In this document: piece by piece, positions 12,534 to 38,786 of the stretch
Numbering within the stretch: position 1 is the stretch's first letter
How the letters are laid out: the number at the start of each line of letters is the position of its first letter
Sequence record: MT446392.1
Length of the DNA stretch: 64,000 bases
From: Escherichia virus TH15
Strand: one strand, 5' to 3'
Made by a program: the position numbers and the translations under genes
The notes under the pieces: model-generated
What the model was told of the DNA's origin: nothing
Database searches by the model: none
The model's input: the letters and a program-made list of their open reading frames with translations, nothing else

Positions 12534-12607
12534 GGCCCTGTAGCTGGACGGTCAAGCGAGCGACTCATAATCGCTGGATGGTGGTTCGATTCCACCCAGG
12601 GCCACCA
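12534..12607 (+). tRNA. tRNA with anticodon CAU (Met, or Ile if lysidine-modified)
   Basis: Hand-folded cloverleaf: acceptor GGCCCTG/CAGGGCC, anticodon stem AGCGA/TCGCT with loop CTCATAA, T-arm GGTGG-TTCGATT-CCACC, encoded CCA. Confidence 0.7.
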
Positions 12608-12741: not shown

Positions 12742-12817
12742 CGAGGCATAGCTCAGAAGGAAGAGCAAGGACCTTCTAAGTCCTAGGTCGTAGGTTCGAT
12801 TCCTACTGTCTCGACCA
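12742..12817 (+). tRNA. tRNA-Arg (anticodon UCU)
   Basis: Hand-folded cloverleaf: acceptor CGAGGCA/TGTCTCG (one G-U), D-arm GCTC/GAGC with GG loop, anticodon loop CTTCTAA, T-arm GTAGG-TTCGATT-CCTAC, encoded CCA. Confidence 0.75.
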
Positions 12818-16818: not shown

Positions 16819-17158
16819 TCTTGCACTACATGTTTATCAATTGGCTGAATATGATATTGGTGCCAATTTATTATTAGGGATTGTTACCGCTATGCTCGGG
16901 GGCTTGGTTGGCCTGGTAATGACCACAGTTATGGCTGCAATCGAGGGAGTCATGCCTATTGAGATGGGCTTCTTTATGATAATTGCTCCGGCTGTTGTAG
17001 CCTATTTTATCCCGGTTGTGTATGATATCTGTCACACAAACACCTTGAATGCTCCCATCCGTAAGAGATACGCTTTGGCAATGGCTGAGTATAATAAGTT
17101 CCTGGACAAAACAAAACGTAATGAACTTGAAACCTTTATTAAGGAATGTAAATCATGA
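16805..17158 (+). CDS. small membrane protein, C-terminal FIKECKS motif
   Basis: Start at Met 32 of ORF 16712..17158 (MERPSLALH...); two hydrophobic segments; stop overlaps next ATG (ATGA). Confidence 0.45.
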   Translation: MERPSLALHVYQLAEYDIGANLLLGIVTAMLGGLVGLVMTTVMAAIEGVMPIEMGFFMIIAPAVVAYFIPVVYDICHTNTLNAPIRKRYALAMAEYNKFLDKTKRNELETFIKECKS

Positions 17159-17445
17159 ATAAAATTGAAATCGCTATCCCTAAGTATTATGATGAGAAAT
17201 CTGCAGAAAAAGCTATCTATTCTCTTCTAAATAAGACTTCTGAAATTGAAACACATTGTGAAGAAATCGCTGATGAATATGGCATTGAATTCAGCACCGG
17301 CGATTACGGCACAGGTCGTACATACCACCCAGTCGGTTATGAATGCTCTGAATGGTTTACCCATCATATTGAAGCCAATGGCGGTCGGGTTGAAAATGGT
17401 GTTGTTACCGTTGGTGCTTGGGTCTCCTCTTCTGAGATGTGTTAA
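17155..17445 (+). CDS. W-SSS-x-C family small protein, member 1 (ends ...GAWVSSSEMC)
   Basis: 96 aa; shares the EEIADxY N-terminal helix and W-V-S-S-S-E-x-C C-terminus with the four downstream ORFs. Confidence 0.55.
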   Translation: MNKIEIAIPKYYDEKSAEKAIYSLLNKTSEIETHCEEIADEYGIEFSTGDYGTGRTYHPVGYECSEWFTHHIEANGGRVENGVVTVGAWVSSSEMC

Positions 17446-17454
17446 GGAAATGGT

Positions 17455-17736
17455 ATGATGAACGATTACAGTAAAAATAAAGAACTGGCCAACGCAGTAA
17501 ACGAAATCCATAAAGCTATTCGGCGCGCCGAGGAAATTGCAGACAAATATGAGACTCATTTTAATATATACCCTGCTCGCGGTATGGGCGGTGACTATTA
17601 TTCTCCTGGCGCCTTGAAAGCTGACCTTGCTCATTGGGAAAACTACGGTGAAGCCCAATACGCCATTGTTAACCAACATGACTACACAACGGACCTTGAA
17701 AAAGGTGGTTGGGTTTCCTCTTCTTCTGAATGTTAA
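17455..17736 (+). CDS. W-SSS-x-C family small protein, member 2 (ends ...GGWVSSSSEC)
   Basis: 93 aa; tandem paralogue; stop followed by TAAGGAA SD of the next gene. Confidence 0.55.
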   Translation: MMNDYSKNKELANAVNEIHKAIRRAEEIADKYETHFNIYPARGMGGDYYSPGALKADLAHWENYGEAQYAIVNQHDYTTDLEKGGWVSSSSEC

Positions 17737-17744
17737 GGAATTAT

Positions 17745-17942
17745 ATGTCCCGTGAATTAGATTGTGCAATCCGTACTGCTGCGGCAGCTATTGAAAACGT
17801 TATCCAGATTTGCAAAGAAGAACGCGAAGAAGCTGATATCTATATTGACGGTCAGCGTAATCTGGAACAACATATTACGCTTTATAATGGTTGTATTACT
17901 ATTAGTGGTACCTCTTGGGTGTCCTCCTCTTACGAATGCTAA
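17745..17942 (+). CDS. W-SSS-x-C family small protein, member 3 (ends ...TSWVSSSYEC)
   Basis: Start at Met 6 of ORF 17730..17942 (SD aaggaa); tandem paralogue. Confidence 0.5.
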   Translation: MSRELDCAIRTAAAAIENVIQICKEEREEADIYIDGQRNLEQHITLYNGCITISGTSWVSSSYEC

Positions 17943-17950
17943 GGAAATAA

Positions 17951-18178
17951 ATGACTACTAAAACTGTTAAAGAAATTGAAGACCAAATCCGTGCACTAAT
18001 CTGTGAAGGTGAACAGCTGGCCGATAAAACTGGTGAATACTTTCATGTATATGCTGACAGTCTTCAACGATATATTCCTGCGGGCTGTCCAGAATATGAA
18101 GAATATGACTGGATTCGCGGTGATTATGGTATCCCAGAAGGTAAAGGTTTCTGGTACACCTCCTCTATGTCTTGCTAA
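17951..18178 (+). CDS. W-SSS-x-C family small protein, member 4 (ends ...FWYTSSMSC)
   Basis: 75 aa; tandem paralogue. Confidence 0.5.
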   Translation: MTTKTVKEIEDQIRALICEGEQLADKTGEYFHVYADSLQRYIPAGCPEYEEYDWIRGDYGIPEGKGFWYTSSMSC

Positions 18179-18187
18179 GGAATAAAA

Positions 18188-18412
18188 ATGTCTGATATTA
18201 ATGAATTAGAAAAAGCAGCTCTTGAACTGGCTGCGCTGTATAAGAAAGTTAAAGATATGGCTTCTGCTCAAGATTTCGGTATTGAGCTCGATGATTATGA
18301 TGGCGAAGTTCGTCTTGAAGACTGGTTGAACAGCTCTTGTTATGGTGAAGAAGCTGGTCGAACCTTCGTTGCTCACCCGGATGGTAAAATCTGGTACCCG
18401 AGCAGCTGCTAA
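18188..18412 (+). CDS. W-SSS-x-C family small protein, member 5 (ends ...KIWYPSSC)
   Basis: 74 aa; tandem paralogue, most divergent. Confidence 0.5.
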   Translation: MSDINELEKAALELAALYKKVKDMASAQDFGIELDDYDGEVRLEDWLNSSCYGEEAGRTFVAHPDGKIWYPSSC

Positions 18413-18514: not shown

Positions 18515-18745
18515 ATGTGGTATTACGCCCCAATGGCTGATGAGCCTGTGAAAATTAGTCGCGCTAAGTTTACAAAGATTTACGGCCTCGTTTATAAGAA
18601 GTCTGATTACGGTGTTCGTTTTGAAGATGCACACTGTATCAACGACCCTTATAATGAAGACCTCTATGGCAAATTGGTTCCTATCGTTAAGGGGTCCGCC
18701 TCTGAGATGATAGATGAATCTAATATCTCTGCTGCTGAAATTTAA
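18515..18745 (+). CDS. hypothetical protein
   Basis: 76-aa ORF with SD. Confidence 0.45.
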   Translation: MWYYAPMADEPVKISRAKFTKIYGLVYKKSDYGVRFEDAHCINDPYNEDLYGKLVPIVKGSASEMIDESNISAAEI

Positions 18746-18763: not shown

Positions 18764-19723
18764 ATGATGTTAGTTATTGGCTCTCGCGCATTACATAACG
18801 CCGGTCTGATTGAAAGTAAGAAAATTGAAAACTCTGATTGGGATTTTATCGCTGACCAGGGTTCCTGGAACAGCTTTAAAACCCAGATGATGGGGCAGCA
18901 TGTTCATGTGGATAACCCAGATGTGCAAGCTTTTAAATGTATGCACAATGGTAAAGAAACTTATTTTGAAGCGTACATCGTCCGCGCACTGACAAGTGTT
19001 CGTGAGTTGACTGATGAGTTGCAAGAGGAAGATTTTACTTCCAGTTATCGTCTGCTCAAATATGCAAAGGCAAATATTCAGAAAGACCGTCTATCTGGTT
19101 TTTACTGGGCGACCCCTGATATTTGTCTGGCAATTAAATTGTCTCATCGTTACCTGAAGAACAATCCATTCTTCCTGAAGACAATGAGCCATATTAATTA
19201 CCTTCGTAATAAGGGTGTTGTTCTTAATGATGAACTACAAAAAATCATGCAACAACGACAGGCAGAAACACTGTCATATAGTCACCCTAAACTAGACGTG
19301 GGCAAGAAAACTTTCTTTAATGATACAATCTATACCCTTGACCATGACTCCATCCACGAGGCCGTGGCGCTTGCTGATAAGCCTGCATATAAGTTCTATA
19401 TGAAGGATGATTCAGAAGTCATGACCTCACGTGAAAAATTTGAAGCACTCCCTGATGTTATTAAACTGGCAGGGGTTTATGAAGAAGCATGTGTGCTCGC
19501 TCTGGAGCGTTCGCAGGTTCCTAACGAGTTTAGTATCCCGGCCAGTCATAGCTTCCATATGGCTCTGGAAAAAGTCTGCACCTCCATTACTTCTGGATGG
19601 TTTCGTGAGTATGCCTGGGAACATTACCAGGATGTGGTTAATATGTACAACACCCTGGGTCGCGAAGACTATGTTAAACGTTTCAAGGCTAACCAGCATT
19701 TAATTCGTCCTTTTTCAAAATAA
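18764..19723 (+). CDS. Pol-beta-superfamily nucleotidyltransferase-like protein (function unknown)
   Basis: 319 aa; N-terminal VIGSRA ... SDWDF ... ETYFEAYIV arrangement fits the hG[GS]-x(9-13)-D-x-[DE] minimal NTase signature. Confidence 0.4.
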   Translation: MMLVIGSRALHNAGLIESKKIENSDWDFIADQGSWNSFKTQMMGQHVHVDNPDVQAFKCMHNGKETYFEAYIVRALTSVRELTDELQEEDFTSSYRLLKYAKANIQKDRLSGFYWATPDICLAIKLSHRYLKNNPFFLKTMSHINYLRNKGVVLNDELQKIMQQRQAETLSYSHPKLDVGKKTFFNDTIYTLDHDSIHEAVALADKPAYKFYMKDDSEVMTSREKFEALPDVIKLAGVYEEACVLALERSQVPNEFSIPASHSFHMALEKVCTSITSGWFREYAWEHYQDVVNMYNTLGREDYVKRFKANQHLIRPFSK

Positions 19724-19782: not shown

Positions 19783-20469
19783 ATGAACGGTCCTAAAACT
19801 TTTAATAGTCAAGCTCGTGCAGTTGGTGGTTTTGCACATAACGTACAAAATGACCAAATCAAAAATGAACCAATGTTCTTTAACTGTGATTTGAGTTTTG
19901 CTTGGGATAATGGTGGTCCAATCACTCGTAGCTTTATTGCCAATCTCCCAATTGATTGGACTAATCAACATGTTGTGTTTGATTCACGTGCGCATATGTT
20001 AATGCCAGGTTGGTATCCAGCTATCCCTGGCTATCATCATGATGATGTTCCTCGTCCACCCATTCCAACAGGACAACATTTTATTACTGCAGGACAACCT
20101 GATTATGACAATCCTCGCTATTTGTCTGAACACATTCTTGGTCTTGTTAACGCTGATGTGTGCCCTACCCATTTTGCTACAGGCGAAGCCACCTTTAGTG
20201 AAATCCCAGAAGGTGAACTGATTTATCGCCAATGGCATAAAGAAGTTCTGGCTAAAATTGAATCAGGTGAATTAGAGCAATGGGAAGCTCCTGACCGCAC
20301 ACTCCTGCAGTTTAATTGTCATACCTGGCATACTGGTTCCCAGACAGTGCGCAATGGCTGGCGTTGGTTTGGTCGTGTATCTCGTAACACTGACCGTGTT
20401 AAAAATATTACCAATGAAATCCGCGTTAATGCCCAAGTATATCTGGAATTCCCTATGGAGGGATGGTAA
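19783..20469 (+). CDS. hypothetical protein
   Basis: 228-aa ORF with SD gaggaaaa. Confidence 0.5.
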   Translation: MNGPKTFNSQARAVGGFAHNVQNDQIKNEPMFFNCDLSFAWDNGGPITRSFIANLPIDWTNQHVVFDSRAHMLMPGWYPAIPGYHHDDVPRPPIPTGQHFITAGQPDYDNPRYLSEHILGLVNADVCPTHFATGEATFSEIPEGELIYRQWHKEVLAKIESGELEQWEAPDRTLLQFNCHTWHTGSQTVRNGWRWFGRVSRNTDRVKNITNEIRVNAQVYLEFPMEGW

Positions 20470-21739: not shown

Positions 21740-22495
21740 ATGAATTATCTAAAAATATATGAATCTTTAATAGTATCTGCTATTAAAAGACCTCTTACAC
21801 AAGGATACACCGAAAAACATCATATTTTACCGAAATCGATGGGTGGTAATGATTCTATTGATAATTTAGTTACCCTTACCGCCCGTGAACATTTTATTGC
21901 ACACTTATTATTGGCAAGAATTTTTAAGAATCGCGAAATGTGGTCCGCTGCATATATGATGGCTTCAACAAGTCTAACTAACTCGGATAGACATAGATGC
22001 TCGTCACATTTATATGAATTATTGCGTAAACAAGCGTCGGTATATAATTCAGGTGAAAATTCTCCAAATTGGGGAATAAAACGTTCTGAAGAAACACGAT
22101 TAAAAATGTCAATTTCAAAAATGGGTATCAGGAATCCAATGTACGGTATTCCACAATGTTTGGAACACTCTCATAAAATTAGCCTTGGTGTTACCGAAGC
22201 TTTTAAAAATCCAGAAATGAAAGAACGCCACCGTCAAAGTGTTTCTGGAGAGAATAATGGGTTTTATGGAAAAAAACATTCCGAAAAAAGTTTGGAAAAA
22301 CAGCGGAATACAAAACGGAAAGGATTTCCTTGGGACAATTATTTGGAATTGTACCCAATTTGGGTTTCATTAAATTGCCCCAAGCATCCAACATTCACAA
22401 ATGAACTTGTTAAATTGGGATACCCCAAAAAGAAGCTTGTTCGAATAGTGGAAGAGTTTAAAAATGAATATATTCGAAATGCTACGCATAGATGA
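21740..22495 (+). CDS. HNH homing endonuclease
   Basis: 251 aa; N-terminal [11 protein letters not shown]...[20 protein letters not shown] is the typical HNH core; NUMOD-like basic repeats at the C-terminus; overlaps start of e by 32 nt. Confidence 0.7.
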
Positions 22496-31641: not shown

Positions 31642-32094
31642 ATGATTATCAATACAAACTCTTGGCACGCTAAATTACACGACCGTTTTTATGACCGTCA
31701 TTCTCGACCACACTCTTTGTGTGCTTACTTCTGGAAAATTGTATGGGCCTGTTTTGTTTGTGCAGGTTTTATTGGCAGTACAGTCTTCTGCTTAACTGTT
31801 GCAGGTGCTGGTGTATTGGAGCAGTTCTTTGTATTAAGTATTCCGGTTGGTTTAGGGCTAGGGTTTATTTTAGGACTGGCTACAATGGCTATTATTCTGG
31901 CGGTAGTATTTGGTTTAATGTATGGTCTAATGAATTTATGGTCCTGGTATGATTTACGTAAAGAAGAAAAAGAATGGGAACGAATTAAAGCTGGGCGTGA
32001 AGGCCGAGAAACTAAAGAAAACGTTTTCATTCAATATATCAAAGCTCGTAAATCTAAGATGTGCCCGGTAATCCATTTTGAGGCGAAGAAATGA
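31642..32094 (+). CDS. membrane protein
   Basis: 150 aa; multiple hydrophobic segments. Confidence 0.5.
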   Translation: MIINTNSWHAKLHDRFYDRHSRPHSLCAYFWKIVWACFVCAGFIGSTVFCLTVAGAGVLEQFFVLSIPVGLGLGFILGLATMAIILAVVFGLMYGLMNLWSWYDLRKEEKEWERIKAGREGRETKENVFIQYIKARKSKMCPVIHFEAKK

Positions 32095-33101
32095 GAACAG
32101 TTATGAAGGGCTATTTTGGCTCACATCTTTATGGAACAAGTACTCCGGAATCTGATGTTGATTTTAAAGAAATCTTTGTTCCACACCCACGTGACATTCT
32201 GTTAGGTACGGCTATGAACCATACCAACTTGAACACGAATAATACGGCATCCAAAAACACTAAAGACGATGTTGACCACGAGCTTTATAGTCTGAAATAT
32301 TTCTTTAAACTGGCGGCTGAAGGCGAAACTGTTGCTCTGGACATGATTCACACTCCGGCTAACCTGGTAGTCAAATCCGATTTACCAGATGTATGGAAGT
32401 TTATCCAAGACAACCGTTCACGGTTCTATACGACCAACATGAAAGCATATTTGGGGTACGTCCGTAAGCAAGCTTCAAAATATGGTGTTAAAGGTTCTAG
32501 ACTGGCTGCTTTACGTGGTGTACTGGCAATTGTTAACCAGATTCCTGAACAGTGGGTTGACTACCAAGAAGATGGTTCGACTAAACAACGTCGCACTAAA
32601 GTTGAAGATATTAAGCATCGTCTCCCAGAGAACGAATTCTGTGAATGGGTATTCCATAACCATGAGAAAACTGGCCCTCAAACGTTTTATACTGTTCTCG
32701 GTCGCAAATACCAAACTACTTTGTCATTAATCGAGCTTAAGCAATCTCTGAATAAACTTGATGCTGAATATGGTGAACGTGCTCGTAAGGCTGAAGCTAA
32801 CGAAGGTATTGACTGGAAAGCTCTGAGCCACGCTTATCGTGCTGGATATCAGTTGAAGGAAATTTATATGACCGGTGACCTTCAATATCCTTTACGAACA
32901 GCCCCATTTATCCTTGAAATCAAACAAGGGCTACATGCTTTTAAAGATGTACAGGCTGAACTTGAAGCTATCGTTGATGAAGTCGAAACTAATGCCATCT
33001 GGGCTGCTAAGAACGGTATGCCCGATAAGGTAGACATGAAGTTCTGGGACAAGTTTGTTGAAGAGGTATATCTTGACAACCACAATTCCTATTATTGTTA
33101 A
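32091..33101 (+). CDS. nucleotidyltransferase (Pol-beta superfamily) domain protein
   Basis: 336 aa; N-terminal GSHLYGTSTPESDVDF is a clear G[GS]-x(9-13)-D-x-D NTase signature. Confidence 0.5.
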   Translation: MRTVMKGYFGSHLYGTSTPESDVDFKEIFVPHPRDILLGTAMNHTNLNTNNTASKNTKDDVDHELYSLKYFFKLAAEGETVALDMIHTPANLVVKSDLPDVWKFIQDNRSRFYTTNMKAYLGYVRKQASKYGVKGSRLAALRGVLAIVNQIPEQWVDYQEDGSTKQRRTKVEDIKHRLPENEFCEWVFHNHEKTGPQTFYTVLGRKYQTTLSLIELKQSLNKLDAEYGERARKAEANEGIDWKALSHAYRAGYQLKEIYMTGDLQYPLRTAPFILEIKQGLHAFKDVQAELEAIVDEVETNAIWAAKNGMPDKVDMKFWDKFVEEVYLDNHNSYYC

Positions 33102-38477: not shown

Positions 38478-38786
38478 ATGATTGGATTAAATGAACAGAC
38501 TATTTTTCTAGGTGATGGTACCGAAGATGACCTAGAATATAAACTCTATGAATACATGGTAGCCCTGGCGAAAGAAGAAGGTATTGACTTTGCTGTGGCT
38601 AATCCATATGGCGAGAACACCGTTGTAATCGGTGGCACTGCTTATGAAGTCCAATGGCAATACGTTGGGCTTGAATCTGAAGAATATGAAGAAGATAAGC
38701 ATGGCGATTGGCATCCGGTTGGTCCTTGGTATTGGGACGACGGCGAGCCTGATTTTGAAGTAAGTAGTTATTGGTGTGACCGTTAA
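38478..38786 (+). CDS. hypothetical acidic protein
   Basis: 102-aa ORF. Confidence 0.45.
   Translation: MIGLNEQTIFLGDGTEDDLEYKLYEYMVALAKEEGIDFAVANPYGENTVVIGGTAYEVQWQYVGLESEEYEEDKHGDWHPVGPWYWDDGEPDFEVSSYWCDR

Follow-up and report, generated by a model that had tools for sequence, protein, structure and literature searches.

The MntA-HepT (MNT-HEPN) type VII toxin-antitoxin system relies on a minimal Pol-beta nucleotidyltransferase (NTase) whose target is the product of the adjacent gene, a HEPN RNase with an Rx4-6H motif, which it nucleotidylates on a tyrosine. The holo-ACP synthases CitX and MdcG, equally of the NTase fold, transfer a nucleotide-derived group to a serine of a small acidic carrier protein. 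ANT(2'')-Ia, LnuA and LinB act on antibiotics and do so without dedicated protein partners. The MenT/AbiEii enzymes are encoded by chromosomal toxin-antitoxin loci. In MenT enzymes, the motif IV aspartate (D152 in MenT1) is expected 15-22 residues past the motif III lysine. The catalytic residues of MenT1 have been defined by experiment as T39/D41, K137 and D152, and its antitoxin MenA1 is a protein of 68 aa (PDB 8an4/8an5; PMC10435456). Here we compare these systems with an NTase-like gene of Escherichia virus TH15 (MT446392.1), of which a stretch of 64,000 nucleotides, called the window below, was analysed.

The window comes from a T4-type coliphage of the VR25/VR7 (Gaprivervirus) and Dhakavirus group and reads in the direction of the T4 early genes. 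The NTase-like gene, found in the list of open reading frames at the position and on the strand given by the initial annotation, sits in a block inserted between the equivalents of T4 e.3 and e.2; in T4 these two genes adjoin and the inserted block is missing. A GAGG Shine–Dalgarno sequence lies 8 nt 5′ of the start codon. A scan for promoters and terminators was uninformative, with 20 promoter-like sites vs 17 expected. The gene and its parts are as follows:

18764..19723, plus strand: NTase-like gene, ATG start, 319 aa; DUF7277 + DUF7275; phrog_2141
18764..19066, plus strand: N-terminal Pol-beta-type NTase core as predicted (DUF7277, aa 1-101), from Pfam, beta-alpha-beta topology and near-invariant catalytic-type residues
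18779..18784, plus strand: G6-S7, putative GS loop of the NTase core
18836..18844, plus strand: D25-x-D27, putative DxD of the NTase core
18968..18970, plus strand: E69, putative third carboxylate of the NTase core
19079..19213, plus strand: basic linker/helical segment (aa 106-150, pI 10), from conservation and pI
19136..19138, plus strand: K125, invariant in 145/145 relatives, putative counterpart of the motif III lysine of MenT
19121..19678, plus strand: C-terminal all-helical domain (DUF7275, aa 120-305), the most conserved part

In Pfam, DUF7277 matches residues 2-101 of the protein (E 1.7e-27, 96.4 bits) and DUF7275 residues 120-305 (E 3.1e-76, 255.9 bits), both above the curated cut-off of 27 bits that applies to either family, and the phrog_2141 match spans residues 1-319 (E 8.6e-148). 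The DUF7277, DUF7275 and PHROG 2141 entries have no function attached, and the nearest annotated homolog, VR25_134 (97% amino-acid identity), is labelled 'hypothetical protein'. In GenBank the homologs of the Acinetobacter phages Lazarus and Konradin are labelled 'putative nucleotidyltransferase', and such records are few.

The family to which the gene belongs is large. A word-indexed search (E<=1e-3) retrieved 2,041 clusters at 90% identity, and an exhaustive HMMER scan 1,219 clusters at 50% identity; 349 of the latter fall below 1e-30. By tblastn the gene occurs in 731 phage records, which span T4-like coliphages, jumbo phages of 370 kb and actinophages, with hosts that include Escherichia, Acinetobacter, Aeromonas, Pseudomonas, Vibrio, Gordonia and Streptomyces. 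When one genome per species was searched for 185,579 bacterial and archaeal species, nine loci were found, all on MAG contigs, and the family is virtually confined to viruses.

The initial annotation had read a Pol-beta-type NTase into the first 70 residues on the strength of three strings, all of which are present (VIGSRA at residues 4-9, SDWDF at 24-28, ETYFEAYIV at 65-73), and both the conservation of the motif residues and the predicted structure support this reading. Among 36 homologs, the most distant of which has 44% identity, no exchange occurs at G6, S7, D25, D27 or E69. In the 145 representatives of the 50%-identity clusters, the glycine is kept in 143, the serine in 138, D25 in 142 and D27 in 144, while position 69 is E in 126 and D in 17; the remainder of the first 105 residues shows a mean identity to the query of only 24%. 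Conservation of the GS, DxD and E residues amid such variable surroundings argues for an active-site signature and against a chance motif. AlphaFold2, run on the 36-sequence alignment, gave a model with a pLDDT of 91.0 and a pTM of 0.85, in which I5-G6-S7 is placed where strand 2-5 passes into helix 7-12, D25-W-D27-F at strand 26-31 (beta2) and E69 within strand 64-73. The predicted alpha/beta core carries a mixed beta-sheet as in known NTase structures, and since the sheet is predicted the NTase interpretation stands. We thus consider it very probable that the protein is an NTase-fold enzyme with a live active site, an assignment which rests on modelled structure and motif rather than on a sequence-level family link, and which extends a well-known superfamily by a divergent family.

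The lack of such a link also bears on the opposite idea, that of a degenerate, non-catalytic NTase-fold scaffold or of a chance match to the motif. Sequence and profile searches with the protein matched no named NTase family, and the spacing from GS to DxD (14-15 residues in most members and 17 in this protein) is longer than the classical 9-13. However, strong purifying selection has preserved all three carboxylates and the GS loop amid changing surroundings, and inactive NTase homologs typically lose such residues, which makes a dead scaffold highly improbable. In databases beyond the named NTase families there was no NCBIfam match and no match in the PADLOC defence-system libraries, and the PDB yielded nothing with the single full-length sequence, the family profile or a profile of the N-domain only. 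In a Pfam scan of 66 divergent family members at E<=1, a few gave sub-threshold matches to NTase-type families (DUF6036, E 7.7e-3; MdcG, E 0.06). The MdcG match, found in 1/66 members, is the sole link to the CitX/MdcG synthases, which serve here as a conceptual analogy. The antibiotic-modifying enzymes ANT(2'')-Ia (4xje), LnuA (4wh5) and LinB (3jyy) show 7-9% identity to the protein in structural alignments.

A second NTase of the same superfamily and of similar length is encoded by the same phage:

32091..33101, plus strand: RlaP-type NTase; PF10127, E 1.2e-10; phrog_388 'nucleotidyltransferase'; T4 nrdC.11 family

The initial annotation had rated the match of the gene studied here as the weaker of the two. 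At the sequence level this is correct, as the other protein falls into the Pfam family RlaP and ours into no named NTase family. Co-conservation of the two genes and paralogy between them, on the other hand, are both rejected: an hhalign comparison gave a probability of 0.03, the NTase-like protein has no PF10127 match, and the distributions differ, RlaP being found in 1,547 phage records and present in T4, T2 and RB69. The NTase-like gene thus represents a separate lineage. The RlaP gene is also not linked to the tail-bearing small open reading frames (ORFs) that accompany the NTase-like gene.

The part of the protein that follows the NTase core is by far the better conserved, with a mean identity of 50% for the C-terminal two thirds. 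The linker contains the family invariants K125, H128, R129, K139 and T140. K125 lies 98 residues past D27, as compared to 96 residues between D41 and K137 of MenT1, and position 143 (K125+18) is an aspartate in 130/145 relatives and a histidine in the NTase-like protein and in the T4-like clade. On the basis of this spacing K125 and position 143 are candidate equivalents of MenT motifs III and IV. The C-terminal domain contains the motifs YDHDxxH (D193-H194-D195, H198), GVYEExCVLALER (E240, E241, E248, R249) and KVCTSITSGWFRE (K270, C272, S274, S277, G278, R281). K125, H128, F137, K139, T140, H194, D195, H198, P207, E240, E241, E248, R249, G278 and R281, among others, are invariant in all 145 representatives. 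This unusual density of invariant His, Asp, Glu, Cys and Arg residues, among which are an H...HD...H pattern and an HDxxH string, together with the fact that the domain is the most conserved part of the protein, could indicate that the main chemistry takes place here. A metal-dependent hydrolase, lyase or peptidase might be built from H128, H194-D195, H198, E240/E241 and C272, with the NTase core only activating or holding the substrate. The DUF7275 helical domain had no convincing fold relative. We regard a principal role of the C-terminal domain in the chemistry as quite unlikely. Our first guess of an HD-type phosphohydrolase was abandoned, as an HD fold with its H...HD...D metal site was not found.

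Five small ORFs precede the NTase-like gene on the same strand, followed by a sixth that differs from them:

17155..17445, plus strand: small acidic partner protein 1, 96 aa; ends GAWVSSSEMC-stop; family HMM E 1.6e-23; pI 4.64
17455..17736, plus strand: small acidic partner protein 2, 93 aa; ends GGWVSSSSEC-stop; family HMM E 2.6e-22
17730..17942, plus strand: small acidic partner protein 3, 70 aa; ends TSWVSSSYEC-stop; family HMM E 6.7e-10
17951..18178, plus strand: small acidic partner protein 4, 75 aa; ends GFWYTSSMSC-stop; phrog_899; family HMM E 1.7e-12
18188..18412, plus strand: small acidic partner protein 5, 74 aa; phrog_899; family HMM E 1.3e-11
18515..18745, plus strand: 76-aa ORF (phrog_3723) without the tail motif, situated after partner protein 5 and before the NTase-like gene

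Members of this small-protein family measure 60-125 aa and are encoded on the strand of the enzyme, usually just 5′ of it. They have an N-terminal amphipathic helix ending in [IL]-A-D-E-x-G-[IV]-x-F, frequently a Y-G-M-G-G-x-Y-Y-P motif, and the tail consensus G-x-W-x-S-S-S-x-x-C directly before the stop codon. Partner protein 5 has the motif twice, internally as EDWLNSSCYG and terminally as KIWYPSSC-stop; as some small proteins carry such an internal second motif, a free C-terminal carboxylate is not strictly needed. The proteins are acidic (median pI 4.42 for 179 sequences; net charge −5 to −10 for those of the window). At least two of the five in the window match phrog_899, and tblastn finds homologs of partner protein 2 in 281 phage records. 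There is no Pfam family and no solved relative for them, and all database homologs are labelled 'hypothetical'. A profile of the family showed a weak, non-significant similarity (best E 0.036) to residues 42-93 of staphylococcal nuclease, where a helix followed by IEVEFD...DKYGRGLAYIY aligns with iAdeyGvefs...dYGmGgtYyp, which may reflect a shared substructure of helix and beta-hairpin. The 76-aa ORF is found in close relatives only and its membership in the module is uncertain. Within the window the family HMM matches only the five partner ORFs at 17155..18412 and one marginal ORF. The latter encodes an acidic protein of 102 aa (38478..38786, plus strand; E 0.0045), lies 19 kb from the cassette and has a helix motif LAKEEGIDF and a degenerate tail EVSSYWCDR; judged from these features it may be a diverged orphan member.

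How tightly the small proteins are tied to the enzyme was assessed by neighbour clustering at 80 diverse viral loci, from T4-like, Aeromonas, 355-371-kb jumbo and metagenomic phages, with target identities of 38-97%. BLAST alone detects the small-protein family at 52/80 loci. With a strict regular expression for the stop-anchored tail motif there were 138 matches at 72/80 loci, where codon shuffles give an expectation of 1.25 +/- 1.0; 134 of these 138 are on the strand of the enzyme and 123 within 2 kb upstream of it. A relaxed motif is found at 78/80 loci. The motif is present in 21 of 24 lineages defined by single linkage at 70%, and in 10 of 11 at 60%. As a rule one to five tail-bearing ORFs lie upstream of the enzyme, and 53/80 loci contain 2-5 small-protein paralogs. 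Loci that have kept the enzyme with no detectable small partner do occur (L027, L030). The independent loci from cellular-genome MAGs show the same arrangement in 8/9 cases. A whole-genome scan found neither the enzyme nor the small-protein family in the complete T4 genome. The genetic linkage between enzyme and small proteins is thus independent of lineage, and the two are probably coupled functionally. One database protein (P0254, 377 aa; L084:107-1240) at first looked like small protein and enzyme fused in a single chain. It was discarded as a gene-calling artefact because the DNA has an in-frame stop after QWNSSGGPACW, at the junction of a tail-bearing small ORF and the NTase-like gene, which the gene call had read through; alternative-code gene calling had created false fusions in the protein collection.

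This linkage bears directly on the possibility that the enzyme modifies a small molecule in the manner of ANT(2'')-Ia or LnuA, such as a metabolite, an antibiotic-like anti-phage compound or a signal, the small proteins being separate neighbours. The ANT and Lnu enzymes have the two-lobed build that is proposed for the NTase-like protein. However, they work without dedicated protein partners while the NTase-like gene has small-protein partners, and a small-molecule substrate would leave unexplained both the near-obligate linkage, specific in strand and position among neighbours that are otherwise unrelated, and the joint absence of the two components from T4. We consider it very unlikely.

The explanation that we prefer, to which we would give slightly less than an even chance, is a live two-lobed NTase working as a unit with the tail-bearing small proteins. 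The enzyme would be built as in the MenT/AbiEii toxins and ANT/Lnu enzymes, with an N-terminal beta-sheet core providing the metal-binding carboxylates D25, D27 and E69 and the GS loop, and a helical lobe in which K125, R129 and K139 would cluster for the NTP. The rest of DUF7275 would be a family-specific, strongly conserved helical extension fused to the NTase. The enzyme would recognise the W-x-S-S-S-x-x-C tail of the small proteins encoded upstream and transfer a nucleotidyl group from an NTP to the hydroxyl of a tail serine or the thiol of the cysteine, the small proteins being dedicated substrates or clients. The conserved C-terminal domain would form the tail-binding site beside the active site and possibly a processing site as well. 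That enzyme and small proteins bind each other, which group is the acceptor and which nucleotide is transferred are all inferred. That the small proteins are nucleotidylation substrates in particular we hold to be possible, if doubtful. Roles as substrate or client are preferred over that of an antitoxin-like inhibitor because there are several diverging paralogs per enzyme, because the invariant side chains are reactive and because some loci have the enzyme without a partner.

MntA-HepT is the closest functional precedent for the proposed nucleotidylation of the tails. Unlike HepT, the small partners are proteins of 60-125 aa with a pI of ~4.4 and no conserved Rx4-6H motif; this is found in only 42/179 of them, scattered over non-conserved positions, and on these grounds they were not taken for HEPN partners.

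Several points weigh against our preferred explanation. The link to NTases is structural only and reaches neither a named NTase family nor a solved structure by sequence or profile, the sole apparent fusion of the two components is an artefact, the position of the MenT motif IV aspartate is occupied by a histidine in the NTase-like protein, and the closest structural relatives, MenT1/3/4, act on the 3′ ends of tRNA and not on proteins. The structural ranking and the precedent of MenA1 make a MenAT-like mode of action a serious alternative. The enzyme would then be an NTase acting on RNA 3′ ends (the tRNA acceptor stem), with which the phage would alter or mend its supply of tRNAs. The small proteins would inhibit or time this activity by plugging the active site with their tail. 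We nevertheless judge it to be rather unlikely. The usual 2-5 paralogous partners per enzyme are unlike the 1:1 pairs of toxin-antitoxin systems, loci L027 and L030 keep the enzyme without a detectable partner, and with a pI of 6.5 (family median 6.1) the protein as a whole is not basic. In addition, the invariant nucleophilic residues of the tail suggest chemistry over plugging. PF08843 (AbiEii/DUF1814) gave no match to the query at E<=10 and lay outside the 25 most-matched of the 31 families in the scan of the 66 divergent members at E<=1, and the NTase-like protein is therefore not filed as a MenT/AbiEii member. The MenT/AbiEii enzymes also lack a counterpart of the ~170 extra, highly conserved C-terminal residues, and whereas they belong to chromosomal toxin-antitoxin loci, the NTase-like family is virus-restricted with 1-5 W-SS-C-tailed paralogous partners.

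Our preferred reading of an NTase acting together with the small proteins can be extended, with greater reserve, to a phage-specific system of post-translational modification. An NTase with a unique catalytic or recognition domain would nucleotidylate the tails of diversifying small acidic effectors, and the nucleotidyl-serine might further act as a leaving group, for example in the conversion of serine to dehydroalanine, attack by the terminal cysteine and formation of a lanthionine-like C-terminal ring. Such a cassette, which we judge to be rather unlikely, to about the same degree as the MenAT-like mode, would yield modified effectors for host takeover or counter-defence. The reading as a live Pol-beta NTase gives a chemistry to a large virus-confined family with no assigned function, and the near-obligate pairing with tandem Trp/Ser/Cys-tailed small proteins supplies a candidate substrate or regulator. 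Together this points to an undescribed two-part module of enzyme and partner. The literature that could be searched held nothing relevant on the Pfam and PHROG identifiers or on phage NTases with small partners, and the C-terminal domain and the pairing with W-SS-C-tailed proteins appear undescribed there. Should the small proteins turn out to be substrates, phages would be shown to encode a new type of protein modification; should they turn out to be inhibitors, the cassette would be a MenAT-like module carried by phages and directed at tRNA. Both cases are relevant to the means by which large virulent phages gain control of the cell or escape its defences.

In this context, it is of interest that the arrangement is also present in Yersinia phage phiR1-RT (L085, HE956709), where g125 is the homolog of the NTase-like gene and g126-g128 are the tail-bearing small ORFs. 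When screened in E. coli, g126-g128 caused no inhibition, and g125 was left out of that toxicity screen because it was annotated 'phage protein' and not 'hypothetical' (PMC6893735). The toxic phiR1-RT proteins Gp136 and Gp137 do not correspond to the NTase-like gene, as both are transmembrane proteins encoded elsewhere.

Directly downstream of the NTase-like gene lies another ORF:

19783..20469, plus strand: 228-aa ORF (phrog_1843), no Pfam match

In its product, an H-H-D-D ... C-H-T-W-H pattern recalls a metal site. The ORF was rejected as a third universal component, since iterative HMM searches found it as a neighbour at T4-like loci only (23/80). The other neighbours are lineage-specific and comprise a lambda-type phosphatase, RNR, HNH and methyltransferase-like genes. 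In jumbo-phage-like loci (L050, L057, L058, L061, L065-L067, L071) the NTase-like gene is followed, at ~+0.5 kb, by the lambda-type Ser/Thr metallophosphatase (GDIHGN...GDxxDRG...GNHE; cluster 15, 15 loci); this adjacency could be synteny only or a hint of phospho- or nucleotidyl-serine chemistry. Further downstream in the window, a homing-endonuclease-like ORF with HNH and NUMOD3 (251 aa; 21740..22495, plus strand) separates nudE from the lysozyme gene e, whose start (22464) it overlaps. In the closest relative, VR25, nudE is directly followed by e, so this ORF looks like a recent mobile insertion. On the other side, ~6 kb upstream of the cassette, genes for tRNA-Met (CAT; 12534..12607, plus strand) and tRNA-Arg (TCT; 12742..12817, plus strand) mark the equivalent of the T4 tRNA region.
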